64,000 bases of DNA from an uncultured Gammaproteobacteria bacterium. GTDB taxonomy: Bacteria; Patescibacteriota; Patescibacteriia; UBA9934; GWF2-40-263. The notes beneath the pieces are model-generated. The model did no database searches, had not been told where the DNA came from, and saw only the letters and a program-made list of their open reading frames with translations. A program made the position numbers and the translations under genes. The stretch spans positions 137,221-201,220 of the forward strand of contig CAYNRK010000001.1 in assembly GCA_964399675.1 (NCBI GenBank), read 5' to 3'. This document shows, in pieces, positions 1-49,547 of the stretch. Within the stretch, counting starts at the first letter, position 1. Every line of letters starts with the position of its first letter.

Positions 1-6
1 ATAACC

Positions 7-909
7 GTGCGTACATTCGTTCATTTCTTTGCAGTATCCATTCTTCTCCTCGGCCTGGTTGGTTGTACCGAGGTGATCAAACCTGTTCGTTCCGCCGGGG
101 CCATGGGTTCGGATGGTGGCGCTGCCGAGGGAGAGGGCGAGGGAGAAGGTGAGGGCGAGGGGGATGTTGTCGCTGTGGGCGTGTGTGATGTTGTGGGCGT
201 GGGCGTCGGTGTGGGGGAGGGCGAGGGAGAGGGGATTGCCGAGGGCGAAGGCGAAGGCGCTGCCGAAGGTGAAGGCGAAGGCGAAGGCGAAGGCTCTGCC
301 GAGGGCGAAGGCTCTGCCGAAGGTGAGGGCGAGGGCGAAGGCGAAGGCGCTGCCGAGGGAGAAGGAGAAGGAGAGGGCTCTGCCGAAGGTGAGGGCGAAG
401 GCGAAGGTGAAGGCGCTGCCGAGGGAGAAGGTGAAGGAGACCTCCCTGATCCGCTGCCCGACAGCTTCGTTCTTGTAGGCATCTTCGGTGGCTACCCGGC
501 GATCCAGCTCAATGTCGAGCCTTACAGCTCGGCGAACGTGCTCGGTCGGGGCTGGCTCGAGTCTGCACAGGTGCTCAACGGTGATGAGGTCGTGGTCGAC
601 CTTTTGGCCGACGTGTACCCGCCAGACACCCTGTGTGGCATTCGCCTCAACGCATCCTTCTATCACGACGCAGGGGACGTGAACCAGGACAACGAGATTA
701 TTGGCGAGCCCGAGAGCTGGCTCTGTGAGGTCATCTCACCGGGCGAGGAGAACCAGCGCTTGGTGCTCGAAGCAGCCGCCTGGAGCGAGGTCAGGGTCAA
801 CAATCTCGAATACTCCCTTGATGACATGGTGCCATACCAGGTTCCCGGCGAGGCCGGTTGCTCGGCCTTGCTCATCATCAGCGAGAATGGGCTCTGCGCC
901 CTGAACTGA
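7..909 (+). CDS. Secreted lipoprotein with an N-terminal (Gly-Glu)n low-complexity repeat region. GTG start; the product is unknown.
   Basis: Signal peptide [20 protein letters not shown] with lipobox L-V-G-C. Residues 40-140 are [14 protein letters not shown] repeats encoded by GAAGGC hexamer tandem repeats. About 60% GC. Confidence 0.5.
120..440 (+). repeat. Tandem hexanucleotide (GAGGGC/GAAGGC)n array inside the lipoprotein gene. It is likely hypervariable.
   Basis: Directly visible runs of ggcgaaggcgaaggc with periodic gctgccgag punctuations. Confidence 0.7.
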
Positions 910-980
910 GCAACAACACCCTTTTGCTCAACCACCCGTCACTCGGGTGGTTTTCAAATTGAAAAATTTTGCCAATTACC

Positions 981-1009
981 TTGACTTCTTTGTTTTTTTC
1001 TGGTATTAT
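981..1009 (+). promoter_or_regulatory. Sigma70-like promoter TTGACT-17-TATTAT upstream of the 1037 CDS.
   Basis: ttgact at 981-986, a 17-nt spacer, tattat at 1004-1009, then AGGAG ribosome-binding site at about 1025 and ATG at 1037. Confidence 0.55.
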
Positions 1010-1036
1010 CATTTGTTTCCCAAAAGGAGTAGGGCC

Positions 1037-1537
1037 ATGAGAACAGCGCAAAGTGCATCTCGGGTTCTCTCCAACAGGGAACTCGTACAATTCGTTCATC
1101 TTCCAACAGGACTGACAGGCGAAGAGGTTCGTGATCGTCTTGATGCAGCCGAGCGGTTCATTGATTTCGATGACACGCTTTGGCTGGTTGATAGAGGATT
1201 TGCGCGAATGGATTTTTGTGGGAAGCCTCTTGCCAGGTTTCTTGCAGAGCGTCCATTTGTGATGCAGACCTGGAATCCAGAAGATGCCTCACGGTTTTTT
1301 CTGGAATCTCCTGGTTTGGCACAACCTCTTCTGGTAGTCGAACCGCCAACACTGCAGGTACGAGTCGAAGATCTCGACTTTGATCCTTGCACAGCTGACT
1401 CTAACTTTGACGGTCTTTTCTGGGTTTGGAAAGACCTTTCAGCTTTGGGGGTTCATGGAAAAGAAGTCTTCGACGACGACCCAGATCATCTCTTCGCGCC
1501 AGGGTGTCGAGTAGTGACAGAATTCGACCCTTGGTAA
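1037..1537 (+). CDS. Hypothetical protein (166 aa, about 50% GC).
   Basis: ORF preceded by promoter-like and AGGAG ribosome-binding motifs. No recognisable family motif. Confidence 0.5.
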   Translation: MRTAQSASRVLSNRELVQFVHLPTGLTGEEVRDRLDAAERFIDFDDTLWLVDRGFARMDFCGKPLARFLAERPFVMQTWNPEDASRFFLESPGLAQPLLVVEPPTLQVRVEDLDFDPCTADSNFDGLFWVWKDLSALGVHGKEVFDDDPDHLFAPGCRVVTEFDPW

Positions 1538-1562
1538 AACGGGCAGCTCATGCCCGTTTTTC
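1537..1562. terminator. Bidirectional rho-independent terminator aaaacgggcagctcatgcccgttttt between convergent genes.
   Basis: GC stem gggc/gccc flanked by an A-run and a T-run. Confidence 0.6.
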
Positions 1563-1578
1563 AATTTAATAAGAAAAG

Positions 1579-1598
1579 ACGAGTCAGATGACTCGTCA
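1579..1598 (-). terminator. Perfect 9-bp inverted repeat gacgagtca-gat-gactcgtc immediately 3' of the minus-strand GNAT gene.
   Basis: Inverted repeat followed on the minus strand by a U-rich tract tcttttctt. Confidence 0.5.
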
Positions 1599-4565: not shown

Positions 4566-4640
4566 CCTTGCGTCTTTGCGAGGAGGCCCGTTTGACGGGC
4601 CGACGAAGCAATCTCCGTACAGGAGGTTGTTTTGTTTTTT
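4566..4640. repeat. GC-rich intergenic palindromic element related to the TGTCAT family.
   Basis: It contains ggcccgtttgacgggccgacgaagcaatc. The hairpin ggcccgtYWgacgggcc and the cgaagcaatc block recur at 16340, 23556 and 62941. Confidence 0.5.
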
Positions 4641-4686
4641 TGAAAAGAAAGAACCGATCGTAAGACCGGTAGTGTGGACGAGAGGT

Positions 4687-5877
4687 CTACTCAACACCCT
4701 CTCTTTTTTTGGGCCCTTCGACATCGATGATAGAGCCTCCCGGAAGCCCGACCTCCGGGAGACGATCCCTTCGAACGAGGGTGGGCTTAACCCAGACGGT
4801 TTTTTCAGCGGTCGGGTCGTTGCCTTTGCCCCGAGGTCTACGCCAATGCGCACGTCGCCAATGAGGAGCAACTTCCCCACCTGAAGCTGATGCTTTGCCC
4901 TCGAGGGCGTCCCATTCAGCTTGGGTGAGTCGAAATCGATTACGGACGACGGTTATGTCGGCACCTGTCGTTATCGCCTTCGGGTCGATTGTTTCCACCT
5001 TCGCGCTTTTCACGGCTGTGGCATGTCGGCTCTTGGGTTGAAGCGAGGCAAGGTACTGACAAAGACTCGCAACGATTCGGAAAACACCTTGTGAGCAGCG
5101 TATTGCTTCGAGCCTTTTTTCGTCGAGATCAACACCTGAGGAGAGCTTGCGGTTTGAGAGCCAATCTGCGCTTTCAACGACTCTCGTGTTATCGGTTGCG
5201 CCGAAATGGAGTCTCGTTGGGGCTCTTGTCTTGTATCGACGGATAGTTGCCAACAACGTTCGGCCCGCTTTTGAGAGGCGTTTTTTTCGAATCGACTTTG
5301 CTATAGCCCGAAACTTTGCCTCGGGTATCATCTGGAAGCTAGCTTTTGGCGGCCCATACGCGCTGATGAGTGTAAACCACCCATCATCTTCGAATTCAAG
5401 TCGACACACGACAATACAATCGCAGCTGAAATTATCGTCGATAAGAAGCGGTTCTTCTAGCGTGATCGCAAACGAATCAAATGGCCAAAGAACCTCTGAC
5501 CAGGAGAGTGTGTGCAGAGAGGTGCCCCGAAAGATGCTTGAGACTTCTCTGTTAAGGTGGAATACTTTTCTTGAAGACTGGGTCCACCCAAAAAGCGCCA
5601 ATGCGTCATAGTCTTCGGGGCTCATGTGTTCGTTCAACGTGTCGGAATAAAAGAAGCGACTCTTGTCGAAGTCTGTTTCCGGTCTGGTGCGAAGGAGAAA
5701 CTTACGAAAGGCTCGCCAGTTCCTTACAGGTCCGCTTTTTCGAGTTAGCTTATCTGGAAGATTTTGACCCACTACTGTCTGGCTAAGCCCAGTGAAGCGC
5801 GCTTCCTGCTCCCAAGTTTGGAGCACCTGATCGATTCTGGTGATAGGAATTTTGTATCCCGACACTTTGCACCCCAC
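4687..5877 (-). CDS. Hypothetical protein on a high-GC island (about 56% GC). GTG start.
   Basis: Long ORF in a GC-rich segment. No recognisable motif. Several overlapping antisense ORFs are GC artefacts. Confidence 0.45.
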   Translation of the reverse strand: MGCKVSGYKIPITRIDQVLQTWEQEARFTGLSQTVVGQNLPDKLTRKSGPVRNWRAFRKFLLRTRPETDFDKSRFFYSDTLNEHMSPEDYDALALFGWTQSSRKVFHLNREVSSIFRGTSLHTLSWSEVLWPFDSFAITLEEPLLIDDNFSCDCIVVCRLEFEDDGWFTLISAYGPPKASFQMIPEAKFRAIAKSIRKKRLSKAGRTLLATIRRYKTRAPTRLHFGATDNTRVVESADWLSNRKLSSGVDLDEKRLEAIRCSQGVFRIVASLCQYLASLQPKSRHATAVKSAKVETIDPKAITTGADITVVRNRFRLTQAEWDALEGKASASGGEVAPHWRRAHWRRPRGKGNDPTAEKTVWVKPTLVRRDRLPEVGLPGGSIIDVEGPKKREGVE

Positions 5878-6100
5878 TCTTGAAAGGAACGCAAGATATC
5901 AATTTAAGACCATTATTGGTATCTTGTCAAGTCATAAACAACCATTGACAAACACCCAAAAACAAGCAACAATACTCAAGTATGCAACAACCTTGCTACC
6001 TAATTACAGATATGAAATTCGCCGGACAAGTTTCTCCGGCTAATTTTCGTTTCTCGGGTAGCAAAGTGTTGATGTAATATTTTTCTTAGATATCAATACT

Positions 6101-6133
6101 AAAACAACCCGGGAAACCGGGTTGTTTTGTTGT
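6101..6133. terminator. Hairpin aaaacaacccgggaaaccgggttgttttg.
   Basis: Stem cccgg/ccggg with flanking AACAACC/GGTTGTT extension and a T-run. Confidence 0.5.
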
Positions 6134-6226
6134 GTAAAAGCAACATCAATAACTCAATGAGCTCAAACGGATCGTGATCGAACTGATCCGGTTGGTTTGA
6201 GCTCGCTAAATCTAAGCCGGCGTCGG

Positions 6227-6250
6227 ACCCAGGCTAAAGCCTGGGGCTAC
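6227..6250 (+). repeat. GPSL element copy (acccaggctaaagcctggggctac), intergenic.
   Basis: Matches the 25-mer cgcccaggctaaagcctggggctac found inside truB and rpsE with a single base difference. Confidence 0.75.
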
Positions 6251-6266
6251 TGCAACAGGAGATCAA

Positions 6267-7439
6267 ATGTCAGCTAGGAGAATCTACTACACTTTCTCAG
6301 CACTGATGTGTTTGGGAATGGGAGCGACTGTAACGGTTTACGCACCGTTCCTGCTTTCGATTGGCCTGACACTTGGAGAGGTGGCTTTGGTCAACTCAGT
6401 CTTCTGGGCAGTCATGATCTTGGCCGAGCTACCAACCGGAATGCTCGCTGACGGAAGATCCCGTGCGTGGTCACTCAAGGTTGGTGTTGTGCTGCAGTCG
6501 ATCGGGGCTGTTGTGTATCTAAGTGCTGTTGGTTTTTGGACAGCTGCTCTTGCAGAAGCAATTGTTGCTGTTGGCATGGCGTTTCTTTCAGGGGCGCAAT
6601 CCGCCTGGATCGCAGACGCGCTTACAAGGGAAGGCAAGTTCGATGACCTAAGGCATGTGTACGCAACCGAGCTCTTGATTCGCACGCCAATGTTTCTGGT
6701 GGGCGGAGCTATTGGAGCGCTTTTGGCACTAGTGTCGTATCGTCTGATCTGGGTGCCCCTGATTGTCATGGGAATTGTTACCGCACTTACGGCACACAGA
6801 TTCATGAACGGCCAAGGTGAACCGCTTGAACAAGTAACGGAAAAGGAAGCCTTGCTTTTGAGTCTCAGACATCTTCGCTCAAGCCGTGCGCTAAAGTGGG
6901 TGATCGCAACAATGATTGTGTTTGGATGTGTTGTATCCTTTAACCACTTTTGGGCGCCGTTTTTTGAGCCAAAGGTTGGTACACTCGGACTCTCATGGGT
7001 TTGGGCAATCATCTACCTTTCATTCATCCCATCTGGGTGGATGGTAAGAAAACTCGGAATCGGTGCCGGACAAGAAGGGAAGTACATTGTACTCTCGATT
7101 CTTATGAGTGGTCTTGGGCTTATGCTGATCGGTGTGACCGACGTGCTTGTTGGATCGCTTGTGATAGCCATGTTCCATGAGTTTGGTAGAGGCATGTTCC
7201 AACCGCTCACAGATTCGTTTGTGCAGCATCGGGTCAAGAGTGCGTATCGCGCAACGTTTGGATCACTTCAATCGTTTCTTGGAAAGATCGGCTTTGCTGT
7301 GGTGCCATTTGTAGTATGGCTCCTCATTCTTGGAAAGCCTGACACGCCCGAGACCATTACAAAAGTCTGGGTAGTGTGTGGTGCGATCATGGTGGTTGGC
7401 TCTCTTGCGCTATTCGTGCTTCGGCCGAAAAAGAACTGA
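6267..7439 (+). CDS. MFS-type transporter (about 12 TM helices). High GC (about 55%).
   Basis: Hydrophobic helices throughout. LAELPTGMLADGRSR-like loop 2-3 motif typical of MFS. Confidence 0.6.
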   Translation: MSARRIYYTFSALMCLGMGATVTVYAPFLLSIGLTLGEVALVNSVFWAVMILAELPTGMLADGRSRAWSLKVGVVLQSIGAVVYLSAVGFWTAALAEAIVAVGMAFLSGAQSAWIADALTREGKFDDLRHVYATELLIRTPMFLVGGAIGALLALVSYRLIWVPLIVMGIVTALTAHRFMNGQGEPLEQVTEKEALLLSLRHLRSSRALKWVIATMIVFGCVVSFNHFWAPFFEPKVGTLGLSWVWAIIYLSFIPSGWMVRKLGIGAGQEGKYIVLSILMSGLGLMLIGVTDVLVGSLVIAMFHEFGRGMFQPLTDSFVQHRVKSAYRATFGSLQSFLGKIGFAVVPFVVWLLILGKPDTPETITKVWVVCGAIMVVGSLALFVLRPKKN

Positions 7440-7493
7440 ACGCATCTTCGGGTGCGTTCTTTCAAATAGAAAGGATCGCCTTTTAGAAGACGA

Positions 7494-8132
7494 TCAGGCG
7501 CTTGATCTGCTCAAGCGTAGAGAGTTGCCTTTGCAGGCAGCGATCATGCGGGCGCGAGTTCGCTTGACCCAGCGATCCGCTTTTGCTTTTGTGGGAAAAG
7601 CGGCAAGCAGTACTTCGGTAAACCGATTTCCTGTCTTTGGCTCACCATCAGGCCGGATAAGGCAGGTTCGATCTGGCGACTCGTACTTGGGGTCAGGGAA
7701 CAGGGGGCCGAAGTTGGACCAGCTGACTTGGATCAAGTCTTCTTTGAAGGTAAGGTTGCTGTAACCTTCTTCATCAGGTGTTACGCTGAATCCGAGCCTG
7801 TCTGCTGAGCGTTCGATGTGTTTACCGATGCGCTCTGTATCTACACAGACCGATGTGCCCACAGGGATGAAGCGGAACGTGTAACCGTTCATTGTGAACG
7901 AATGTTCAGCCGAAGCTGGGCCAACGTGCACAACAGGCAAATCATGCTCTTCACGCAAGCTGCCTGACGTGTAGTCGTCAATGGTCCATGTTGGAACACA
8001 CACCATGCCGACCCACGCTTTTGCGGTCTTGCGCGCAAGACGCGGTTTGGTAACGCGACGGTGATACATCGCCCTTGCCATAGCAAGGTGCACCTCAAGA
8101 CCTTCGTCACGATCCTTAGGTTTAGTAGGCAT
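7494..8132 (-). CDS. Hypothetical protein, high GC.
   Basis: ORF with an AAGGGGGTG ribosome-binding site before ATG at 8132. No family motif recognised. Confidence 0.45.
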   Translation of the reverse strand: MPTKPKDRDEGLEVHLAMARAMYHRRVTKPRLARKTAKAWVGMVCVPTWTIDDYTSGSLREEHDLPVVHVGPASAEHSFTMNGYTFRFIPVGTSVCVDTERIGKHIERSADRLGFSVTPDEEGYSNLTFKEDLIQVSWSNFGPLFPDPKYESPDRTCLIRPDGEPKTGNRFTEVLLAAFPTKAKADRWVKRTRARMIAACKGNSLRLSRSSA

Positions 8133-8207
8133 GGGACACCCCCTTATATATTTAGTATTTCATAACAAAAAAAATCGCCAATAGCATTTGACGAAATTTT
8201 CGACAAC

Positions 8208-10140: not shown

Positions 10141-10445
10141 AAAACTTCTCAATGGCTTGAGAAGTCAACAGCAGGCTCGCGCTTGCGAGCTAAACGAAAT
10201 CAGATTTTAGGCAGCACGCTTTTATAACAAAAAACCTCGCTTGATATACAAGAGAGATGAATTGATTGTAGTTGATAAAGCGTTTATTTGCATAAAATGT
10301 CTGCTTTCGAGCAAGGTCTGTTGATGCCTCCCAAGTCAGATAATCAATAATTACGTGCGCTTAGCTTAGCAAAAAGTCGGATATATGTCAAAGGCTTTAA
10401 TTTATCTTAAATTCGTCCAATTATTGATTGAAATGAAAAAGGGTG

Positions 10446-11849
10446 TCACCGTTTGGCAGCACCCGAGCAAAGACGCAGTGTTTCAAGATGCGATGGATCA
10501 TCGTTGATTCCCGCGCAGAGAGGTTCTTCGTATTCGATCCATGTTCCGGCTGGATGTGGGATTTTGTAACGCACAATCCCTTCTTCGGGAATGACATCCA
10601 TTTCGATCGCCCACAGCGAGTGGAAGGACAGGTTGAGGTTTCCTTCGGCTCTTGGAAGGAGCAAGGCAAAGGACGTTGGACGGGCGATATCTGAATCCGT
10701 CTGGTGTCGATCGTGAACACGGCGCCATAGTTCTATTGCTGAGATCAGCGGAACGCCGCCCTGCATATCCAAGATCCATTTGTAACTCCTCGTACCTATG
10801 ACTAACGCGAGGAGACGATCGAGTTGACGAAGTGTTTTCTCCGTCCTGTCCAGATCATCAATCCAGAAGTTCACTCCTGGCTCAAGTGGACACTGTGGAA
10901 GGAGTTCGATTCCGGCATTGATCAGCTGTCGTGCAAAGTGTGCAGACTCAGGTGTCACGTGCTCTGGATGAGAGACATGGGCTGAGAGCTTGATCTGGAC
11001 ACCGGTCTCATCACGAAACCCGGTAAGCAAGCGAACGAACTCTTCGTCAAACCGGAATGGAAGCCCAAGAAAGAGTGCTCCTGTGCAGATTCTGAAGCTC
11101 CGCAGGTACTTGGCTGTCTTGAGTTCATTGAGGATGCTTCTCCAGACGTTGTTCGACAGAAGCATTGGTTCGCCGCCAGAGAAGAGAATGTCATACACTC
11201 CGGAGAACTCCGGCCTTGTATTCCATTCTTGCACCAGCCATGCTGTCTGTTGAACCGGCTGTGGGATCCAAACAGTCTCTGACCTCCCATCCTTATGGAT
11301 TACTCGAAGCGGCTCTTGGAAACGCGTTTGCGGACCACGATAGCAACCTGCGCAGCCGATAGGACAGGATACGCGTCCTGCACCTCTACCAAGAATCGGG
11401 AGGAATGAGGCATATCCCGGTTTGTGCGTTGCTAGGTAAAACTTCCTGTGTCCTCCGTCGCGCAAAACGACTGAATTCGCCCTTTGGACACCGTAGGGAT
11501 CTGGAGCGGGTTTTAGTCCGAGTCGAGGAAGAAACTTCCTCACCCCTTCGTGTTGAAGGAGATTGAGCGGGAGAAGACTGAGGTCGAATGAACTCAGATA
11601 TTCTCTTAGCAGATCCTCTTTGCCTCGGAATTCCGGAAAGAGGTTAAGAAAGGAATCAAGGTCGCTGGACGTCAAGCGATTCTTGACATGCCATTTCCAA
11701 TCGCCCCAAGAAGATTCCTTGTCTCCAGTGTGCGAGGATTCGATTCCGATTCCGTTCCGGCCACAGAGTATTGCAGCCTCGGAATCGAGATGACGCGCCA
11801 TCCAGGCGTTGCGAGCTTGTCGCAAAGTCTCGGTTAAGAAGGTGCACAT
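10446..11849 (-). CDS. KamA-family radical-SAM aminomutase-like protein (lysine 2,3-aminomutase/EpmB family), on a high-GC island.
   Basis: N-terminal W-K-W-H-V-K-N-R motif. CPIGCAGCYRG is a CxxxCxxC 4Fe-4S site. FSGGEPML and SFRICTGAL correspond to KamA ISGGDGLL and RIGTRAP. AGGAG ribosome-binding site before ATG at 11849. About 57% GC. Confidence 0.65.
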   Translation of the reverse strand: MCTFLTETLRQARNAWMARHLDSEAAILCGRNGIGIESSHTGDKESSWGDWKWHVKNRLTSSDLDSFLNLFPEFRGKEDLLREYLSSFDLSLLPLNLLQHEGVRKFLPRLGLKPAPDPYGVQRANSVVLRDGGHRKFYLATHKPGYASFLPILGRGAGRVSCPIGCAGCYRGPQTRFQEPLRVIHKDGRSETVWIPQPVQQTAWLVQEWNTRPEFSGVYDILFSGGEPMLLSNNVWRSILNELKTAKYLRSFRICTGALFLGLPFRFDEEFVRLLTGFRDETGVQIKLSAHVSHPEHVTPESAHFARQLINAGIELLPQCPLEPGVNFWIDDLDRTEKTLRQLDRLLALVIGTRSYKWILDMQGGVPLISAIELWRRVHDRHQTDSDIARPTSFALLLPRAEGNLNLSFHSLWAIEMDVIPEEGIVRYKIPHPAGTWIEYEEPLCAGINDDPSHLETLRLCSGAAKR

Positions 11850-11977
11850 GTGTACTCCTAAGCCAAGTGGCACGTTCTTCTTATCAGAGATTGTTTTTGA
11901 AATCAATTTTTCAAACCAAACCAGCCGCTTTTACACGGCTGGTTTGTTGGTCCCAGATGGCCTGCCTGTCGGCAGGT

Positions 11978-12054
11978 TGGTGGACCCGACCGGATTCGAA
12001 CCGGTAATTCTCGGTGCTAACGCGAACGGGGTTACCAATTACCCCCACGGGCCC
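11978..12054 (-). tRNA. tRNA-like sequence. The acceptor stem with a G3:U70 pair (Ala-like), the D-arm, the T-arm GGTTCGAATCC and a CCA end are canonical. The anticodon arm is aberrant, so this is possibly a pseudo-tRNA or an integration-site remnant.
   Basis: Minus-strand read GGGCCCGTGGGGGTAATTGGTAACCCCGTTCGCGTTAGCACCGAGAATTACCGGTTCGAATCCGGTCGGGTCCACCA. The anticodon stem TTCGC/CCGAG has a C-C mismatch, and the loop GTTAGCA has a non-purine at position 37. Confidence 0.4.
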
Positions 12055-12098
12055 AGATCCAATCTGGGTTATGAAACAAAAAACAACCTCGTTCGAGG

Positions 12099-12183
12099 CG
12101 TCTTTTGTTAGCACCGAGATAGACCCGTGTGGATCCCCACTCGCTTATAGAAGATTGTAGCAACAAAATCGTGTTTTGTCAAA
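12099..12183 (+). repeat. About 85-bp direct repeat, copy A, upstream of the TylF-like methyltransferase gene.
   Basis: The sequence ...cttatagaagattgtagcaacaaaatcgtgttttgtcaaac is identical to 13166-13206. The left part gttagcaccgagat is an inverted copy of tRNA-like nt 12009-12021. Confidence 0.7.
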
Positions 12184-12250
12184 CTGATTCAAGAGAATTG
12201 ATTTAGCGAGAAAAATTGAAAAACAAATTTGAGAACGATACAATAGGTTT

Positions 12251-13121: not shown

Positions 13122-13206
13122 TTGTTGGCACCAAGATTTCGATCCGTGTGGACCCAACTTGCTTATAGAAGATTGTAGCAACAAAATCGTGTTTTGTCAA
13201 ACAGTT
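13122..13206 (+). repeat. About 85-bp direct repeat, copy B, flanking the other side of the methyltransferase gene and abutting the truB 3' end.
   Basis: About 85% identical to 12099-12183, including an identical 41-bp core. Confidence 0.7.
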
Positions 13207-16324: not shown

Positions 16325-16456
16325 TGTCATCCCGAGCGAAGGCCCGTCAGACGGGCCGAAGCCGAGGGATCTCGAATTATTTATGCGAGATCTCTCCGCT
16401 CGCGGAGCCTGCCCTGAGCGAACGAAGTGAGTCGAATGGGCTCGGTCGAGATGACA
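16325..16456. repeat. TGTCAT-family GC-rich palindromic intergenic element (tgtcatcccgagcgaag...ggtcgagatgaca), copy 1.
   Basis: Terminal inverted repeats TGTCATCCCGAG/CTCGGTCGAGATGACA. Internal nested palindromes ggcccgtcagacgggcc and gagatctc. About 60% GC in an AT-rich context. Confidence 0.75.
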
Positions 16457-16462
16457 GTGTTT

Positions 16463-17401: not shown

Positions 17402-17411
17402 TCCGAATATT

Positions 17412-17450
17412 TCCCCCCTTTTCAAGGGGGGATTAAGGGGGGTTAGCATA
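17412..17450 (+). repeat. PPF element copy, intergenic, between trxB and the high-GC lipoprotein gene.
   Basis: ttcccccctttTcaaggggggattaaggggggttagcataa is nearly identical to 45633-45675. Confidence 0.8.
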
Positions 17451-17463
17451 ATTGCTAATTGAC

Positions 17464-18189: not shown

Positions 18190-18211
18190 CCCTTACGGGC
18201 TATTTCTTTTT
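18186..18211 (+). terminator. Terminator hairpin ttagcccttacgggctatttcttttt.
   Basis: Stem tagccc/gggcta plus a T-run. Near-duplicate of 17464-17488. Confidence 0.6.
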
Positions 18212-29095: not shown

Positions 29096-29122
29096 GGGCG
29101 TTTCTTTCTTTTGCCCGATTGG

Positions 29123-30263: not shown

Positions 30264-30296
30264 GTGAGGCGGCAGACAGCCCGTCTGCCGCCTCAC
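30264..30296 (-). terminator. Perfect 14-bp inverted repeat gtgaggcggcagac-agccc-gtctgccgcctcac. It is the terminator of the high-GC minus-strand operon and the left island boundary.
   Basis: 14-bp perfect stem overlapping the stop codon, followed on the minus strand by a U-rich tract. Confidence 0.6.
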
Positions 30297-36977: not shown

Positions 36978-37075
36978 AAATTGGATTTTTTTGATATAAT
37001 AATTTCTGTCCAAACACCGGCTTGGTTGCGCATAGCCAAGAAGGGCATTGAACAACGAGCGACAAGGAGGACACC

Positions 37076-37645
37076 ATGCGAGCACTCTTGCCTGACAGAG
37101 GGCGAGTCATCGGGTTCTGCGTCCTGATCAGCGCGATGCTGTTGCTGGCCGCAGTACCGGCAACCGCGGAGGTGAAGGCGACCGACCAGTCCCACGACGC
37201 GGACTCGGGGGTCATCTGCTTCCTGAACAACGACGCCAGCCAGGAGCTGACCTGCATCAACCGACGCGCAGAGTCGGACATGTGGGCGATCACCTGCGCG
37301 CTGCGGGACGGCGGCAAGTGCCTGAGCCGAGACAGCGAGCTCATCCTCGTGGACGGCAACCGCTTCATCATGCGAGACGGTCAGCTCATCCTCTGTGACG
37401 GCAACCGCTTCATCATGCGGGATGGGCAACCGCCGTTCATCATGAGGACACCAGCAACAGCTATGCTCCTGCTCAAGGAGATCGGGATGAACCACCCGGC
37501 GGTGGCGCTCCTGATCATGATGCGCGACGAGTTCATCATGCGCACGCCAACAACGCTCGCGCTCAAGAAGTGGCGCGGCGCAACCCAAGCGGTGTCCAAG
37601 GCCGAACTCACGGACGGGACCGCTCCGTTCTCGTTCTGCGTGTAG
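37076..37645 (+). CDS. Secreted/exported protein with tandem FIMRDGQ repeats, on a very high-GC (about 62%) island.
   Basis: Signal peptide MRALLPDRGRVIGFCVLISAMLLLAAVPATA. Repeat LIL(V/C)DGNRFIMRDGQ x2 plus FIMRTP x2. Confidence 0.45.
   Translation: MRALLPDRGRVIGFCVLISAMLLLAAVPATAEVKATDQSHDADSGVICFLNNDASQELTCINRRAESDMWAITCALRDGGKCLSRDSELILVDGNRFIMRDGQLILCDGNRFIMRDGQPPFIMRTPATAMLLLKEIGMNHPAVALLIMMRDEFIMRTPTTLALKKWRGATQAVSKAELTDGTAPFSFCV
37333..37422 (+). repeat. 45-bp perfect-ish tandem duplication (ctcatcctc[gt]tg[gt]gacggcaaccgcttcatcatgcg[ag]ga[ct]gg[tg]ca[ga]) x2.
   Basis: Directly visible at 37333-37377 and 37378-37422. Confidence 0.75.
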
Positions 37646-37783
37646 CGCGACCCCGGCGCAACGCACGAGACAACGGCTCCACACTCAAGGGTGTAGAAAA
37701 GCTGACTTCGGTCGGCTGCTCCTGCATCCTTTTTCATTTTCTTGTGTTTCCAAAGAGCTTTCTGTACATTGAATAGCACAACT

Positions 37784-39472: not shown

Positions 39473-39476
39473 CTTT

Positions 39477-39551
39477 TGTCATCTCGACTAAGCGAGCTTT
39501 GCGAGCGCACGGAGAGATCTCTCGGCTCGCTGGTGCTCGCTCGAGATGACA
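39477..39551. repeat. TGTCAT-family element, copy 4 (tgtcatctcgactaagcg...ctcgagatgaca).
   Basis: Terminal inverted repeats. Internal ggagagatctctc palindrome. Confidence 0.7.
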
Positions 39552-39567
39552 CGTATAATTTATAATT

Positions 39568-40256: not shown

Positions 40257-40329
40257 TGTCATCTCGAGCTTGTCGAGAGATCTCGAAAACGCGAGATCCC
40301 TCGGCTCCCGTTGGTTGCTCGGGATGACA
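40257..40329. repeat. TGTCAT-family element, copy 5 (tgtcatctcgagcttg...ctcgggatgaca).
   Basis: Terminal inverted repeats. Confidence 0.7.
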
Positions 40330-40852: not shown

Positions 40853-40858
40853 ATCCTT

Positions 40859-40993
40859 TGTCATCCCGAGCGAAGCCGAGGGATCTCGCATATTCGAGAT
40901 TTCTCCACTCGCGGAGCCTGTCCTGAGCGAACGAGGTGAGTCGAATGGGCTCGGTCGAAATGACATTAGTAAACAGGCTCGGTCGAGATGACA
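40859..40993. repeat. TGTCAT-family element, copy 6, with a duplicated right terminus (..gtcgaaatgaca...ggtcgagatgaca).
   Basis: About 90% identical to 16325-16456 over about 110 bp. Confidence 0.75.
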
Positions 40994-41061
40994 CGTTAAA
41001 AAACGATGGAGTACCTCGACCATGTCCGGGGGAATAGATTCCATTAGACTAAGTCAAAACT

Positions 41062-44303: not shown

Positions 44304-45341
44304 ATGACTGTTTCAAAAAAGGTATTAGCTCAATATGAGATTGGAAAAGTGAAGTCAGTAAAGCCAGTTGAATCTGGTTTGGTTCATAATACGTTTGCAA
44401 TCAAAACATCTACCGGTGATTATATCATTCAAAAGCTTCATCCCATACTTTCTGATCAAGGAACAGCCAGAGATTTTTTGGCTGTGGCTGAACATCTTGA
44501 AAAGGAAGAATTTTTAGCACCCAAGTGTGTGCTTAGTAAAACAGGGAAAGTTTTAGCTCGTGAAGGAAAAGAGGTTTGGAGAATGCAAACAAAATTGTCA
44601 GGCAACACATACGACGTTATAAAGGATCTTTCAATGCTCAGAGAAGCTGGAAAAATTTATGCGCAGTTTCACAAGACAATGGACCACATGGATTATAAGT
44701 TTAAATCAAAATTGGTTTTGCACGAGACAGAGAAGATTTATAAGAAGTTTTTAAAAATTCTCCCCCTTTTCAAGGGGGAGTTAGAGGGGGTTAGTAATGA
44801 GGTTGAGTTTATAAAAAAAGAATTTCCAAAATATTTTTTGCCAAAAAGTTTGCCGCTTAGAGTAATTCATGGAGATCCAAAAGTATCGAATATTTTGTTT
44901 AAGAAGGTCCCCCCCCTTTTCAAGGGGGGGTTAGGGGGGGTTACCGCTGCTGCAATTATTGATTTGGATACTTGTAGTCGCAGTTCGATTCTGGTTGAGC
45001 TTGGCGATGCGTTTAGATCCTGGTGTGGTAATGAAGAAGATGATCCAAAGAACAGGTTTTGTCTTCGCAAGTTTCGTTCAGCTTGGTCTGGGTATAAAAA
45101 AGGCTCTGATGGGTTTTTAACAGCCAGAGAAAAAAGTTTGATTCCAAAGTGTATTGGTACAATCACACTTGAACTAGCTTGTAGATTTTTAACAGATTAT
45201 TTTGAAGATAGTTATTTTGGTTGGGACTCAAAGCGTTACAAATCCAGAAAAGAACATAACTTGGCGCGATGCCGCGGACAGATAAAAGAGTTTCAAGATT
45301 ATAAAAAAAAGCTTTCGAAAATAAGAAGAGTGGTCAATTGA
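44304..45341 (+). CDS. APH/choline-kinase-like phosphotransferase (protein-kinase-like fold), with two in-frame PPF-element insertions.
   Basis: Catalytic HGDPKVSNILF (HGDxxxxN) and IIDLDTC (DxD). Insertions LPLFKGELEGVS at 44757-44792 and PPLFKGGLGGVT at 44903-44945. Confidence 0.6.
   Translation: MTVSKKVLAQYEIGKVKSVKPVESGLVHNTFAIKTSTGDYIIQKLHPILSDQGTARDFLAVAEHLEKEEFLAPKCVLSKTGKVLAREGKEVWRMQTKLSGNTYDVIKDLSMLREAGKIYAQFHKTMDHMDYKFKSKLVLHETEKIYKKFLKILPLFKGELEGVSNEVEFIKKEFPKYFLPKSLPLRVIHGDPKVSNILFKKVPPLFKGGLGGVTAAAIIDLDTCSRSSILVELGDAFRSWCGNEEDDPKNRFCLRKFRSAWSGYKKGSDGFLTAREKSLIPKCIGTITLELACRFLTDYFEDSYFGWDSKRYKSRKEHNLARCRGQIKEFQDYKKKLSKIRRVVN
44757..44792 (+). repeat. PPF element copy (in-frame, phosphotransferase gene), first.
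   Basis: ctcccccttttcaagggggagttagagggggttagt. Confidence 0.8.
44903..44945 (+). repeat. PPF element copy (in-frame, phosphotransferase gene), second.
   Basis: gtcccccccctttTcaagggggggttagggggggttacc. Confidence 0.8.
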
Positions 45342-45374: not shown

Positions 45375-45634
45375 GTGTTAGCAAAAACAAAACAACTCCC
45401 GATTGAGAGTCGTTTCTTGTCCACCGAAGCCTCTTGGCGAAGGTGGATACATCTGAATGTTGAGATTTCGTTTCAGGCTTGCAGTGTTACTTTATCCTGT
45501 TCATCAACCTCTTTCCTGTGCAGCTATAGTTCAGATGTCTTCTGTTTGGACTAATCCAGACAGGTATCACGTGATTGCACAAGAGGGAATACTACCATAT
45601 ATAGGCGATTTTGTCAACCCCAAAGAGTCATTTC

Positions 45635-45672
45635 CCCCCTTTTCAAGGGGGGATTAAGGGAGGTTAGCATAA
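45635..45672 (+). repeat. PPF element copy, intergenic, at the left edge of the 45.7-49.4 kb high-GC island.
   Basis: tccccccttttcaaggggggattaagggaggttagcataa. Confidence 0.8.
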
Positions 45673-45719
45673 AATAAAGCAAATTGAAAAGCCCGCCTTT
45701 TGAGCGGACTGAGTGGCTG

Positions 45720-47057
45720 TTAGGCCGGGAGTTCGTAGCGGACTACGTGGAAGGTATTGTCGACTACGAACCAGCTCATCACAGCATGACCATCGACCTC
45801 AGTGAGGCGATCGAAGTCTGAGTAGAGCGGGAAGGTGCCGACCCCAGAGATCGAGTAAGGAGGCATCCTGGACCAGGAGAAGATGTCCGAAGAACCGCCT
45901 GCCCACATGGTCAATCCATCGTGGAGCCGGCGATATATGGGAATGTGTCTGGTGGTAACCGCTGGAGTGACGAGCGACTCAACGCCGTCTTCTGAGAACC
46001 ACACGACAGGTCTGGCCTGGTTTCCATCGGCTTCGTGTCCGATGATCGCGACGCCATTGGGGAGCACAACAATGTCTTCAACGGACAAGATGCGTTTGTG
46101 AGGGAGTCGGCGATTGCTGGCTGAATGCTCGCGCAGGGTGAGCGTCTTCCCATCATCTGAATGTACCCAGAACGTCCTGCCATCTTTCGCGAAGATCTTG
46201 TCATTGCGACAGAATCCATTCCCACCCATCCCATTGGGGGTATGGGAGTTCAGGTAGTTGCCATCAGTTGTGCTGACATGCAACACACCGTCATCATCAA
46301 GGAACAGGCTGTTTGGGATGATCCGATCTTCGTTCCTGAGCTTGATCACCTGACGGCCAAACAGAACCTCTTTGTAGTCTGAACAGCGATGTACAATCGC
46401 AGGAGTGTTATCGCTTCTTGCGACCTTGAGAACGGTTCGTTCGTCCTTTGCCCAGAGAACATCTTCTTCAAAGACCAAGCGGCGGTGTTCCTCACTTTGG
46501 CAGAAGACCCGCACAAACTGTTGGCGATCGTCGGATCTGTCATTTCCTGGGTCAAAGGAAACTGCACACCACTTCGAGCACCCTGCTGTCCAGAAGGTTG
46601 GCGCTTCGATCGGGGTCAGATCCAGATCGAATTCCCAGTCGCCCCAACGAACACCGAAGTGCTCAGCTTCTGCATCTGTGTAAACGAACGCCAGTTTGTT
46701 GCTTCCCTCAGGGAAGTGCGGGTACAGAAGATTGTCTGTATTGTCGATCGGTTCAGAAAGACCCGAAGTAGCTGTCCAGGTTCGAACACCCCGCTTTTGA
46801 TCCCCCACGGCACTGCAGACAAGCGCGATCGTTCCGTCGTGTGCAATGCACACGCTGTCATGGATCACGTTGACTCCTGGCGGGAGTCGAAATGCGTGCG
46901 TTACGTGCGGAGGCAGGCCGATGGGCTTTCCAGCAAGAACTTTGACCGCCTGTTCAAGTCTACCTGGACTGACCTTGCCTGGATGAGCACCAAGGTATAC
47001 AAGGATTTGCGCAAGCGCTTTTTCTCTTCGTGTTGGTCCTACTACTGGACTTGCCAT
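45720..47057 (-). CDS. Hypothetical protein (445 aa), high GC (about 58%).
   Basis: Long ORF. No motif recognised. Confidence 0.5.
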   Translation of the reverse strand: MASPVVGPTRREKALAQILVYLGAHPGKVSPGRLEQAVKVLAGKPIGLPPHVTHAFRLPPGVNVIHDSVCIAHDGTIALVCSAVGDQKRGVRTWTATSGLSEPIDNTDNLLYPHFPEGSNKLAFVYTDAEAEHFGVRWGDWEFDLDLTPIEAPTFWTAGCSKWCAVSFDPGNDRSDDRQQFVRVFCQSEEHRRLVFEEDVLWAKDERTVLKVARSDNTPAIVHRCSDYKEVLFGRQVIKLRNEDRIIPNSLFLDDDGVLHVSTTDGNYLNSHTPNGMGGNGFCRNDKIFAKDGRTFWVHSDDGKTLTLREHSASNRRLPHKRILSVEDIVVLPNGVAIIGHEADGNQARPVVWFSEDGVESLVTPAVTTRHIPIYRRLHDGLTMWAGGSSDIFSWSRMPPYSISGVGTFPLYSDFDRLTEVDGHAVMSWFVVDNTFHVVRYELPA

Positions 47058-47202
47058 GATGAAAGGTCCTTTGCCCGGTCAAAAGACTTACATTTGCGCC
47101 GAAGTTTTCCCCGGACGCACTTGATTGCTTTTGCCGAACTTTAGTGATTGCCACGGGATTGTGACGAAGTTATCTCAACACAATCCATATTTTGAGTCAA
47201 TA

Positions 47203-47246
47203 AATTAAATTGAAAAGCCGTTCGTCACCAGGTGGTGTCGAACGGC
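47203..47246 (-). terminator. Terminator gccgttcgacaccacctggtgacgaacggc plus cttttcaattt (minus-strand sense), 3' of paralog 1.
   Basis: 8-bp GC stem with a nested cacc/ggtg stem. Duplicated at 48401-48444. Confidence 0.6.
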
Positions 47247-47278
47247 TCGTGAGTGGTTGTTGCCCTGAAAGGGCTTGT

Positions 47279-48217
47279 CTACGGCGTGGCCGCGGCCGGC
47301 TCGGGCTCGCTCGCGGTCGGGTCGCCGTTGGTCGGCTTGGCCTCGGCTTCGGGTTCCTCCGCGGTCTCGTCCGCTTCGGACTCCTTGATCTCGGGCGCCA
47401 GGTGCGCGTGCAGGTCCTCGATGCCGTAGGTGGGCGCGGCTGCGCTGAGCTCGGTGAACACGCTGCGCACGACCGTGTCGAAGATCTCGTCCTGCCGCCG
47501 CTCCCACAGCTCGTTGAGCCACTCCTGGAACTCGTGGAGCAGTGCATCGTAGTACGAGCCGGTTGGGTCGAAGCACGCGATCGGGATGTTGTGATCCTCG
47601 CGAGCCACCTGCTGGGCACGCTCGTGCTCGTGCTGGTATACCCCCATGTCTTTGTCGCTGGCGTTGGTCACCACCGTGAGCTGGTTTCGGTGGAGGCCGG
47701 TCAGCGCCTCTATCGCTCCCATCGGGCCGTTGTTGCCGACCGCGATCAGTTGCACGCCGTGTGCATCAAGGGCGCGGTCGTTGTTGAGACGATCGAAGAA
47801 GATCGCACGGATCAGCGGAACGAGCCGCTTGACCAGCGGTTCCTCCTTGCGCCAGCCGTACTCGAGCTCGCTGCTCAGTTCCTCGCGCAGATCCACGAGC
47901 GTGCTGCGCAGGGTCTCGGTCAGGAGCTCCCTGGTCGCGGCCGCGTGCTTCTTCCTGGGCGAGCGTACGAACACCATGCCGGCGTCCACGCTGTGATGCA
48001 GCTCGTAGAGGCCGCTACAGAGCGGACCGTCGTGATCCACGACTGCGGTTTCAGCCAACACCTGGATCCTGCCCGTGGTGGCTGAGTTGAACATGGGTGT
48101 GGTGTTGCACACCACGACCACGCCGGTGTCGGCATCAATCTCCACGCAGATCCGTACTGCCGCGGTGATCGGGTCTGCTGCCACGTCCCTCAGTGACTGT
48201 GTGCTAACGTCTGACAT
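47279..48217 (-). CDS. Hypothetical protein, paralog 1 (312 aa). Acidic Pro/Glu-rich C-terminal tail. High GC (about 63%).
   Basis: About 35% identity to 48475-49401 over the N-terminal 230 aa. The last ~75 aa are nearly identical (FDTVVRSVFTELSAAAPTYGIEDLHAHLAPEIKESEADETAEEPEAEAKPTNGDP). Confidence 0.5.
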   Translation of the reverse strand: MSDVSTQSLRDVAADPITAAVRICVEIDADTGVVVVCNTTPMFNSATTGRIQVLAETAVVDHDGPLCSGLYELHHSVDAGMVFVRSPRKKHAAATRELLTETLRSTLVDLREELSSELEYGWRKEEPLVKRLVPLIRAIFFDRLNNDRALDAHGVQLIAVGNNGPMGAIEALTGLHRNQLTVVTNASDKDMGVYQHEHERAQQVAREDHNIPIACFDPTGSYYDALLHEFQEWLNELWERRQDEIFDTVVRSVFTELSAAAPTYGIEDLHAHLAPEIKESEADETAEEPEAEAKPTNGDPTASEPEPAAATP

Positions 48218-48400
48218 CTTAGCCCCTATGTTTCAGTATTGGCGAGAGACCATCCAGGTTTGCCAGGTTCCTGGAATAGAAACGGACATAGTTGTCCGCA
48301 ACGAACAGAATATAGCAGAGATTTGGGCGGATGTCAATGGTTGAACTGAGCATATTTAACTAAAGAATTGAGAGATTTTGAGAGTAATTACTTAAATTGA

Positions 48401-48444
48401 AAAGCCGTTCGTCACCAGGGTGGTGTCGAACGGCTCGTGTGTTG
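48401..48444 (-). terminator. Duplicate of the 47203-47246 terminator, 3' of paralog 2.
   Basis: Same hairpin, with one extra G. Confidence 0.6.
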
Positions 48445-48474
48445 TCGTTGCCCTGAAAGGGCTTATAGCTCAGG

Positions 48475-49401
48475 CTAGCCCGGCGAAGCGGCGGTCTCGG
48501 CCTCGGGCTCGCTCGCGGCTGGGTCGCCGTTGGTCGGCTTGGCCTCGGCTTCGGGTTCCTCCGCGGTCTCGTCCGCTTCGGACTCCTTGATCTCGGGCGC
48601 CAGGTGCGCGTGCAGGTCCTCGATGCCGTAGGTGGGCGCGGCTGCGCTGAGCTCAGTGAACACGCTGCGCACGACCGTGTCGAACAGGGTCGGAGCGTGC
48701 TCGACCCAGAGCTCGTTCAGGTAGTTCTGGAACTCGCGGAGCAGCGCGTCGAAGTACGTACCGGTCGGGTCGAAGCAGTGCACTGCGATGTTGTTGTTCT
48801 CGACCACCTCGCTCGCACGTCGCTTCTGTGCCTCGCGTGCCTGGCTGCTTCCGCATTCGCAGCCGGGAGGGCAGCCGCCCTCGAGCATCGCCATGATGCC
48901 TTCGGGGCGACCCTGACCCACGGCCACGAGCTCGATCGCGTTCCTGTTGAACGGCCGCCCTTCCTTGATGCGGTCGAAGATCACGCGTCGCAGCTGGCCG
49001 GGCAGCCACTCGAGCAGCCGTTCTTCGCTGACCCACCAGTCGGTGAGCTCTTGGGCGAGCTCGGCGTGCAGACCGGGCAGCAGGCTGATGACCAGTCCGG
49101 TCAGCATCTCTCTGGTGCTGGCCGCGTGCGTCTTCCTGGGTCCCTGGATGAACACGATGCCACCCTCGATGCTGTACCGCATCGTGTAGTCGCCGCTGCA
49201 GAGCGGAGCCTCGTGCTGTCCGGCCTCTCGTGTGAGCTTGTCCGTGATCTTGTCCGCGGTCGACCACGCCATTGCTGGCTCGGTGGCCACAACCACGACC
49301 TCGCGTCCTTCGGCCCTGACCCTGAAGGTCAGCTGCACGCAAGCGTGGATCGGTTCGTCAGCGACCTCTCTGGGGCTGGGGAAGCTGATGTCTATCGACA
49401 T
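48475..49401 (-). CDS. Hypothetical protein, paralog 2 (308 aa).
   Basis: See paralog 1. It contains a Cys cluster GGCPPGCECGSS that is absent from paralog 1. Confidence 0.5.
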   Translation of the reverse strand: MSIDISFPSPREVADEPIHACVQLTFRVRAEGREVVVVATEPAMAWSTADKITDKLTREAGQHEAPLCSGDYTMRYSIEGGIVFIQGPRKTHAASTREMLTGLVISLLPGLHAELAQELTDWWVSEERLLEWLPGQLRRVIFDRIKEGRPFNRNAIELVAVGQGRPEGIMAMLEGGCPPGCECGSSQAREAQKRRASEVVENNNIAVHCFDPTGTYFDALLREFQNYLNELWVEHAPTLFDTVVRSVFTELSAAAPTYGIEDLHAHLAPEIKESEADETAEEPEAEAKPTNGDPAASEPEAETAASPG

Positions 49402-49547
49402 GGTGTCTTTGCCTTTTCATCTTGTATTGGCAGGTTGGTCTAGGCTTGCCAATAACCTAGACAAGAAGCAGACGAACATGTCCGCAACGCACGAATGCTA
49501 CAGCAAAACACATAAATTGTCAAGGGTTTCTGGAATAAAAAATTTGC

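Follow-up and report, generated by a model that had tools for sequence, protein, structure and literature searches.

What accounts for the discrete GC-rich gene islands that interrupt an otherwise lower-GC bacterial chromosome? We addressed this question in a 64-kb stretch of contig CAYNRK010000001.1 (GenBank assembly GCA_964399675.1, contig positions 137,221 to 201,220), hereafter the window, which is a piece of a chromosome of the Patescibacteria, or candidate phyla radiation (CPR); the nearest named genomes all belong to this group. A sequence-only reading had proposed that the islands were acquired repeatedly from high-GC donors, with Actinobacteria as a plausible guess, and have since ameliorated little, or alternatively that the assembly is chimeric. 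Much of our argument turns on one island, a ligase-methyltransferase gene pair at 30293-33051, and on how it compares with the other islands of the window.

We combined a 500-bp GC profile with two-state segmentation and with the GC content at third codon positions (GC3) of each open reading frame (ORF). The segmentation resolved a backbone of 40.4% GC, spanning 48.8 kb, and nine high-GC segments that total 15.2 kb and average 56.0% GC, at 1-2150, 4566-5833, 6216-8143, 10441-12144, 16331-16592, 17552-18200, 30260-33049, 37015-37729 and 45691-49387. The 15 island genes, which form nine clusters (47-66% GC, about 15 kb, 24% of the window), had GC3 values of 0.416-0.858, with no overlap with the 0.209-0.404 of the 50 backbone genes (Mann-Whitney p = 3e-9; means 0.615 and 0.314). 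The first and second codon positions were also richer, with GC1/GC2 of 0.62/0.45 in islands versus 0.53/0.36 in the backbone. The standard deviation of 500-bp GC was 0.069, three times the binomial expectation of 0.022, and the maximum among 500 block shuffles was 0.032. Non-overlapping GC3 ranges, segmentation and shuffles thus confirm the proposed mosaic, some details of which require correction. The backbone lies at about 40% GC, not the 38% first given. The eight segments listed at 50-65% GC measure 54.3, 50.5, 52.3, 51.5, 48.2, 58.0, 61.0 and 58.7% (a range of 48-61%) versus 40.5% outside them. The segment at 27960-29100 is weak on the DNA level (47-48% GC), although its GC3 of 0.48 is still beyond the backbone range, and the presumed single segment at 4570-8130 is really two islands parted by a 40%-GC spacer. 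Hairpins or terminators do bound most islands, as had been noted, but they are not island-specific: we counted 30 terminator-like hairpins in 20 kb where 22 +/- 5.5 were expected, and they are present at backbone genes too.

Within the multi-gene islands, the spacers have a GC content of only 41-46%, so the high GC resides in the coding sequences themselves. The backbone genes include those for RNase Y, IF-2, thioredoxin, thioredoxin reductase, LeuRS, ComEC, EF-G, EF-Tu and the S10 ribosomal operon; the highly expressed among them, encoding ribosomal proteins and EF-Tu, use AT-rich codons. Several simpler sources of high GC were considered and rejected. A strand or orientation effect does not hold, as the minus-strand backbone genes for RNase Y, TruB and M20 remain at backbone GC. 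Amino-acid composition as the sole cause is inconsistent with a shift that is strongest at GC3 and in fourfold-site GC. Structured RNAs do not underlie the GC peaks: Rfam at gathering thresholds gave no match in the 64 kb, and the sole RNA gene is one tRNA. Nor does the island at 45.7-49.4 kb behave as one foreign block, its spacers being 45-46% GC with repeats that are shared elsewhere in the window. The small GC spike at 16331-16592 is not a gene island; it is due to a palindromic repeat element.

The same junctions were present in at least five independent Joint Genome Institute (JGI) metagenome assemblies, at 99.85-99.99% identity (samples 3300009332, 3300009374, 3300009106, 3300009107 and 3300009128). 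Contig Ga0117915_1000118 of sample 3300009332 is 99.98% identical to window positions 27076-47646 and encodes the 189-aa island protein, while the 308-aa and KamA-like island proteins lie on contigs of the other four samples, with differing contig ends. All differences among the five assemblies come to 3-4 bases at 47375-47389 and one change in G-run length at 44924; the assemblies are essentially clonal and hence yield no substitution spectrum. GC-rich orthologues were also found at the same syntenic positions in related genomes, which are independent metagenome-assembled genomes (MAGs) from other studies.

The ligase-methyltransferase pair stands beside a gene of backbone composition, which serves as an internal control. 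In this trio (29123-33051, all on the minus strand), an ATP-grasp ligase gene (31123-33051; 59.7% GC, GC3 0.68; 616 aa, 31123-32973, with the JGI start) is followed by a gene for a S-adenosylmethionine (SAM)-dependent methyltransferase (30293-31126; 55.6% GC, GC3 0.60; Pfam Methyltransf_25) and then by an M20 peptidase gene (29123-30199; 40.5% GC, GC3 0.34). We found this gene order in every syntenic locus (L002-L013, L031 and L032), and the pair adjoined M20 in ten of ten lineages, which represent several candidate phyla within the CPR. In all ten lineages with data, the pair had 50-65% GC versus 40-50% for its flanks. Likewise, the GC3 of the pair exceeded that of the adjacent M20 gene by 0.12-0.47 in each of the ten, and M20 was always at host GC.

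Fourfold-degenerate sites in these genes are near saturation, since most identities there approximate the value set by base composition. For the ligase, identity at such sites between the window and L002 was 0.35, against 0.31 expected from composition, and the excess was about 0.10-0.14 in several deep comparisons; for M20, the window and L007 matched at 0.22, exactly as expected (0.22). The M20 and methyltransferase controls were essentially at expectation in the deeper lineages. Between the window and L002, M20 retains a residual signal (0.37 observed versus 0.27 expected), and the amelioration argument for that split alone is strong, not absolute. The ligase, methyltransferase and M20 trees broadly agree at depth, and the window and L002 were sisters in all three protein trees (built before L031 was added). 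Because of the synteny in ten lineages and the near-saturated fourfold sites, the pair is ancient and positionally fixed. A gene pair that is ancient and GC-rich everywhere is not explained as 'not yet ameliorated', and at 30293-33051 the proposal of little amelioration therefore fails: the pair is old, syntenic in ten of ten lineages and GC-rich in every one. The sequence-only reading had named uniform codon adaptation, as a sign of ancient residence, as what would refute it; this is half borne out, the pair showing the residence but not the adaptation.

The ligase is also unusually variable between two close relatives. L002 and L031 are 70-99% identical across 12 other conserved proteins (96% in EF-G), yet their methyltransferases share 66% and their ligases only 48% identity; upstream of the ligase, their intergenic DNA still matches at 81%. 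The ratio of ligase to M20 distance was 5.1 for L002-L031, compared with 2.07 on average. By its ligase, the window falls with L002; by M20, L002 falls with L031; and sliding identity along the ligase gives a mosaic.

We found no sign of an actinobacterial or other non-CPR high-GC donor; named homologues were Patescibacteria, or there were none. The ligase had 33 homologues among 5.8 billion proteins, and all of the named ones were Patescibacteria. A scan of one genome per species placed the ligase in eight loci, seven of them in named CPR lineages (Uhrbacteria, Magasanikbacteria, Kerfeldbacteria, Woykebacteria, Jacksonbacteria and an unclassified Patescibacteria MAG). The eighth, L008 (CAYIQM010000073.1), is a 3.6-kb contig binned as 'uncultured Gammaproteobacteria' that carries the CPR gene order ligase-methyltransferase-M20 and is probably misbinned. 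Among the same 5.8 billion proteins, the 308- and 312-aa paralogues of the island at 45.7-49.4 kb matched only themselves and each other. Their 445-aa neighbour gave 19 matches with E <= 1e-3 in a set of 1.84 billion representatives (best non-self E = 5e-12), with relatives located in the 58%-GC CPR relative L028 and on the 67%-GC contig L030. The best non-self matches were 58-60% identical for the ligase (CPR) and 69% for the KamA-like protein (a match without a taxon name). For the four island proteins searched in large collections that densely sample high-GC phyla, no close non-CPR homologue was found; the 402-aa protein had no homologue in any fetched locus, and the M48 gene no relatives in the metagenome scan. 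Judged from these searches, an actinobacterial source is unsupported. A phage or plasmid origin was likewise rejected, with one weak PHROGs match and none in PADLOC. Viral-contig scans were negative for the 445-aa and 396-aa proteins, and for the latter, which is AcrVA2-like, tblastn against phage and plasmid collections returned nothing and the PDB held no sequence relative.

Relatives of different base composition allowed us to compare the islands across hosts. L028, a groundwater contig whose RNase Y, IF-2 and TrxB are 80%, 69% and 67% identical to those of the window, shares with it the order class-II aminoacyl-tRNA synthetase, MFS, HU, RNase Y, TruB, IF-2, Trx, TrxB. The L028 backbone has 57-59% GC (GC3 0.68-0.75), whereas 63-64% GC (GC3 0.81-0.83) is reached by the genes for MFS, for a 388-aa protein and for a 419-aa member of the 445-aa family. 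The L028 MFS orthologue (59% identity, 64.4% GC, GC3 0.82) lies right after the aminoacyl-tRNA synthetase gene. The MFS island is thus syntenic and GC-elevated in both a 40%-GC and a 58%-GC genome.

Other islands come and go. L002 and L031 have 46-47% GC, and their EF-G is 80% identical to that of the window. Both lack, at syntenic junctions that are otherwise tight, the 402-aa gene that the window carries between NDK and M20, as well as the 189-aa gene that it carries before the EPSP-synthase block. Conversely, L031 contains an 819-bp insertion with one 202-aa gene (coding sequence 54.5% GC), its own AT-rich upstream region and a terminator; this site is empty in L002, and no target duplication is visible. 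KamA-like homologues (56-69% identity) occur in unrelated gene contexts, and in most of them GC minus host GC is -4.5 to +6 points; only the window (+11), where the gene abuts a tRNA gene, and L018 (+9) stand out. The 402-aa, 189-aa and KamA-like islands act as gained cassettes. Repeated horizontal gain, as originally proposed, is therefore plausible for several islands such as these, but it does not extend to the pair, which is present in ten of ten lineages. Single hypothetical genes 8-12 GC points above their flanks also occur in other fetched CPR genomes, at 14292-15596 of L003/L004 (57% GC), 2072-2680 of L031 (54.5%), 8358-8840 of L032 (53%) and 16871-17227 of L028 (69.5%); such a mosaic is thus not peculiar to the window organism.

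The island at 45.7-49.4 kb contains three minus-strand genes: that of the 445-aa protein (45720-47057; 54% GC, GC3 0.58), which belongs to a small, fast-diverging family found in GC-rich settings, and those of two ORFan paralogues, A (312-aa ORF, JGI 301 aa; 47279-48217; 65% GC, GC3 0.85) and B (308 aa; 48475-49401; 66% GC, GC3 0.86). The paralogues are 49-51% identical overall, with about 40% identity over the first 240 residues; the last ~65 residues are identical, as are the terminators (47231-47276 and 48419-48464). A 183-nt tract covering the C-terminal coding ends of both genes (47300-47482 and 48502-48684) is 98% identical and is a recent gene-conversion tract between the paralogues. 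The only base substitutions among the five assemblies (47375-47389) fall inside this tract.

The explanation that we favour, and to which we give an even chance of being right, is cassette turnover from a GC-rich CPR flexible gene pool, in which the GC of old residents is renewed by repeated allele replacement or recombination. A 40%-GC housekeeping backbone would be interrupted at intergenic gaps by single- or few-gene cassettes, each with its own promoter region and terminator and each GC-rich in coding sequence only. The cassettes would be drawn from a GC-rich flexible pool circulating within the CPR; close relatives span 46% to 58% GC, and their accessory genes have 54-65%. The 402-aa, 189-aa, KamA-like and AcrVA2-like genes and the three-gene ORFan cluster would be lineage-specific gains, and the ligase-methyltransferase pair and the MFS transporter would be old residents at fixed positions. 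The GC-richness of these residents would be renewed, not left over, likeliest through in-place replacement by, or recombination with, pool alleles; GC-biased gene conversion may assist this renewal. This explanation builds on what the sequences show, namely a reproducible mosaic, homology that is restricted to the CPR or lacking altogether, synteny and GC excess that are both conserved, a hypervariable ligase and a clean cassette gain in a relative; the conversion tract between the paralogues, as a sign of active recombination, also counts in its favour. That a shared GC-rich pool exists, and how old residents stay GC-rich, is what we infer from them.

Several points weigh against this explanation. 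A donor allele was found for no island, which is why the pool is an inferred one, and no integrase, transposase, attachment-site repeat or target-site duplication flanks any cassette. Replacing the pair while the adjacent M20 gene stays native needs recurrent breakpoints at gene borders. Accessory-type genes also exist at backbone GC (a TylF-like methyltransferase, APH, PBP and NUDIX genes), and 'flexible' alone does not predict GC-richness. Set against other lineages, the window, L002 and L031 still form one cluster in their ligase alleles. Moreover, L031 is a somewhat long branch, and some of the hypervariability may therefore stem from rapid or diversifying evolution in place; rapid evolution accounts for a portion of the excess ligase divergence, not for all of it. 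Finally, it speaks for a pool that the codon usage of the most GC-rich window genes correlates best with that of the L002 pair (r = 0.90) and of the L028 accessory genes (r = 0.87), and at 0.77 with that of the 67%-GC contig L030, but these correlations largely mirror the GC3 level itself.

The strongest rival to cassette turnover holds that the islands are vertically inherited residents kept GC-rich by a gene-specific force, either GC-biased gene conversion at loci with frequent recombination within populations or selection on coding sequence or mRNA (attenuation of translation by rare codons, or resistance of GC-rich mRNA to AU-preferring RNases such as RNase Y). The recurrence of the GC3 step inside a conserved three-gene cluster in ten of ten lineages argues for such a force, as do the near-saturated fourfold sites, which imply that the excess must be renewed. 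The broad agreement of the ligase, methyltransferase and M20 trees at depth and the synteny and raised GC of MFS in 40%- and 58%-GC genomes point in the same direction. GC-richness also ends at coding borders, with spacers of 41-46% GC that contain host-like repeats, and the conversion tract shows that an island is actively recombining. Resistance to amelioration has a precedent, in the AT-rich direction, in SPI-1, a pathogenicity island of Salmonella (PMC7232297). Maintenance in place, however, leaves unexplained both the lineage-specific ORFans with GC3 of 0.86 and the empty sites in relatives, and KamA-like homologues adopt host GC elsewhere. The GC3 excess of 0.3-0.5 also greatly surpasses the published effects of biased gene conversion on bacterial genomes. 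Lastly, highly expressed genes use AT-rich codons, so the GC-rich codons of the islands would be poorly adapted ones. On balance we consider maintenance in place possible but unlikely, and we are equally tentative about the general process that it would entail, one that continuously favours GC in particular genes, keeps them 10-25 GC points above their operon neighbours in lineages whose divergence exceeds synonymous saturation, and makes the flexible genome GC-richer than the core.

Considerably less probable is the proposal that each island arrived recently and independently from an unrelated high-GC donor, for instance an actinobacterium, and has had too little time to ameliorate. The pattern GC3 > GC1 > GC2 and the proteins rich in glycine, alanine, arginine and proline resemble those of 55-67% GC genomes, the graded GC3 classes (0.86, ~0.6 and ~0.5) resemble an amelioration series, several islands are absent in relatives, and the 67%-GC contig L030 encodes a remote relative of the 445-aa protein. 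Horizontal transfer has been estimated to affect up to 13% of Patescibacteria genome length; most of the transfers detected, however, were between Patescibacteria (PMC12455944). Recent transfer is also at odds with the lack of a close non-CPR homologue for the four island proteins searched and with spacers that are host-like, not donor-like, within the islands. For 30293-33051 it is contradicted by a pair that is syntenic and GC-rich in ten of ten lineages, with synonymous sites near saturation. The proposal survives only for the lineage-specific cassettes, and there without the proposed donors.

That high-GC community reads were stitched into a low-GC contig, as a metagenome source and abrupt composition switches might suggest, we regard as next to negligible, because junctions that recur in at least five assemblies from different samples with differing contig ends, switches that fall at gene borders, host repeats shared among the spacers and GC-rich orthologues in the same positions of independent MAGs exclude a chimera or contamination as far as the sequences can tell.

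What the trio does can be approached through the ligase, for which Pfam gave no hit. Its AlphaFold model (mean predicted local distance difference test score, pLDDT, 86.7) had a best Foldseek match to 8fbz (E = 4e-15, target TM-score 0.64), and YgiC (7uk8; E = 2e-8) and YjfC of E. coli were also matched; sequence identity to the fold matches was 10-13%. The model thus predicts that the 616-aa protein is an ATP-grasp ligase with a eukaryotic-type glutathione-synthetase fold, matched over most of the chain. The conservation of the trio across many CPR lineages suggests a small peptide- or amide-modification pathway.

The other islands, too, encode non-core functions, as the sequence-only reading had stated: together with the methyltransferase and ligase they comprise an MFS transporter, an M48 lipoprotein peptidase, a KamA-like radical-SAM protein, an AcrVA2-like protein, secreted repeat proteins and ORFans. 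At the left end, a plus-strand gene (7-909; 62.5% GC) encodes a lipoprotein with a signal peptide, then Cys and a long (Glu-Gly)n stretch of EGEG repeats (an 18-copy 12/18-nt repeat family). It is followed by a 196-aa ORF (JGI 166 aa) on the plus strand (947-1537; 47% GC, GC3 0.42), the weakest island gene and one with no family hit, and by a 223-aa ORF (JGI 212 aa) on the minus strand (1601-2272; 50% GC) that contains one in-frame C6/G6 palindromic element. The AcrVA2-like gene (4687-5877, minus strand; 52% GC) belongs to an anti-CRISPR-type family typical of mobile elements; the assignment to Pfam PF26125 comes from the precomputed JGI table, and there is a weak match to phrog_6160. Next come the MFS transporter gene (6267-7439, plus strand; 50.6% GC, GC3 0.51; Pfam MFS_1) and that of a 212-aa protein without family hits (7494-8132, minus strand; 53.8% GC). 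The KamA-like radical-SAM gene (JGI 467 aa; 10446-11906, minus strand; 51.7% GC) gave NCBIfam KamA-family matches below cutoff. The M48 peptidase gene (17515-18189, plus strand; 51.4% GC; Pfam Peptidase_M48) encodes a predicted lipoprotein with the N-terminus MKLSVLFIISLISATGC and has its own terminator at 18187-18202. On the plus strand, the 402-aa gene (27887-29095; 47.3% GC, GC3 0.48) forms a weak island, and the gene for the secreted 189-aa protein, which has 'DGNRFIMRDGQ' repeats (37076-37645; 63% GC, GC3 0.86), is a single-gene cassette with sharp edges at 37015-37729 that was found in two assemblies. Pfam, PHROGs, NCBIfam and PADLOC assigned no family to the 196-, 223-, 212-, 402- and 445-aa proteins or to the 312/308-aa pair, and the structure model of the 308-aa ORFan was unusable (pLDDT 51).

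We found no integrase, recombinase or other mobility gene in the islands or flanking ORFs with these four resources or in the precomputed JGI Pfam tables, and no attachment-site or flanking direct repeats at any island. The KamA-like island is the sole one to abut a tRNA gene, tRNA-Ala with anticodon AGC (11981-12054), which lies directly upstream on the minus strand and is a possible integration landmark. ARAGORN detected this gene; the whole-window Rfam scan (gathering threshold, fast filters) missed it, and a sensitive scan scored it at 38.6 bits with the Rfam tRNA model, against a gathering score of 29. The Rfam alignment reads a G3:U70 pair in it. An alanine tRNA with A34 is unusual for bacteria. 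Nearby, two 55-nt direct repeats, 93% identical (12135-12189 and 13153-13207), flank the TylF-like methyltransferase gene of backbone GC. Each contains a near-consensus minus-strand promoter (TTGACA, 17 nt, TACAAT, with a TG extension), and the repeats could be a duplicated promoter module or a scar of cassette insertion.

The window also carries families of palindromic elements. The element behind the GC spike noted above (16327-16459) resembles a miniature inverted-repeat transposable element (MITE), is GC-rich and palindromic, and has the terminal inverted repeats TGTCATCCCGAG...CTCGGTCGAGATGACA (families D4, D7 and D9). It belongs to a GC-rich intergenic family whose members measure 70-130 bp and have TGTCATCYCGAG...CTCGRGATGACA as terminal inverted repeats; further copies lie at 39476-39552, 40257-40329, 40858-40996 and 63790-63906, and related ones at 23523-23605 and 62930-63000. 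The copies directly precede genes, trxB, rpsL and rpsG among them, match no Rfam family at gathering thresholds, and look like MITEs or conserved leader structures. A second, 43-nt palindromic element, C6-TTTTCAA-G6 followed by TTAAGGGGGGTTAGC, has six copies (2031-2073, 17409-17451, 21047-21089, 44757-44799, 44907-44949 and 45630-45672). Three of these lie in frame inside conserved genes and a fourth in frame in the 223-aa ORF. The element reads 'LPPFQGGTKGGLS' in LeuRS and 'LPLFKGELEGV' and 'PPLFKGGLGGV' in an APH-family kinase; both proteins have extra residues at the element compared with relatives, and in the kinase this is a clean 10-residue insertion relative to L031. Rickettsia palindromic elements insert into genes, and by analogy the 43-nt element resembles these. 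The G-run whose length differs at 44924 lies inside one such in-gene element: the window and sample 3300009374 have an uninterrupted kinase of 345 aa, but in sample 3300009332 it is split into 209 and 125 aa, which reflects either a sequencing error or a phase-variation-like switch.

Why does the origin of these islands matter? Composition-based island finders and the amelioration clock equate atypical GC with recent foreign origin, and an old, fixed pair with a large GC3 excess implies that in CPR genomes such tools would mis-date and mis-source genes. Whether mutation, selection or biased gene conversion sets the GC content of bacteria is an old question, for which a conserved GC step within an operon, in clade backbones that range from 40% to 58% GC, offers a natural experiment. 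If a gene-specific GC process does operate, the flexible genome would be GC-richer than the core, the reverse of the usual bacterial rule. A CPR-restricted pool of GC-rich cassettes (ORFans, secreted and anti-CRISPR-like proteins) may also hold the host-interaction and defence repertoire of these episymbionts. Mobile or acquired DNA is usually AT-richer than its host, and the GC-rich direction of the window islands is unusual. In the literature we found no account of CPR islands that are GC-rich, restricted to coding sequence and conserved in position, nor anything specific on biased gene conversion in Patescibacteria.

How, then, do these islands compare with known systems? A survey of Patescibacteria described hundreds of genomic islands (PMC12455944). 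As with horizontally acquired islands in general (Lawrence-Ochman framework; PMC12455944), the window contains distinct blocks whose GC and codon usage are atypical; they encode accessory functions, vary in presence among relatives and, in one case, adjoin a tRNA gene. In contrast to such islands, the window blocks are single-gene units of 0.7-3.7 kb, lack an integrase, a transposase and repeats at their flanks, exceed the host in GC, and include at least one block that is ancient and syntenic across CPR candidate phyla and has not ameliorated. Integron cassette arrays likewise consist of small one-gene modules, as the window does between its conserved genes, and the three genes of the 45.7-49.4 kb island share a 21-nt AT-rich motif (family D18) at their 3' ends; unlike these arrays, the window has no integron integrase or attC-like sites, and its modules have their own AT-rich promoter regions and terminators and lie in mixed orientations. 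In bacteria, GC-biased gene conversion reportedly acts at loci that recombine (Lassalle et al., 2015). With it the islands may share a locus-specific rise in GC3 that is independent of expression, and a conversion tract and an incongruent, hypervariable ligase speak for recombination in or at them; the GC3 differences seen here (+0.1 to +0.5) are much larger than the reported effect. The closest parallel in durability is Salmonella SPI-1, an AT-rich island whose resistance to amelioration is attributed to the H-NS silencing regulon and is concentrated at promoters (PMC7232297). The deviation in the window runs the other way, toward GC, and is confined to coding sequence. For the window islands, we know of no regulator comparable to H-NS. 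In both cases, however, a long-resident, fixed gene set keeps an atypical composition in all lineages, which points to an active force and not to recency.

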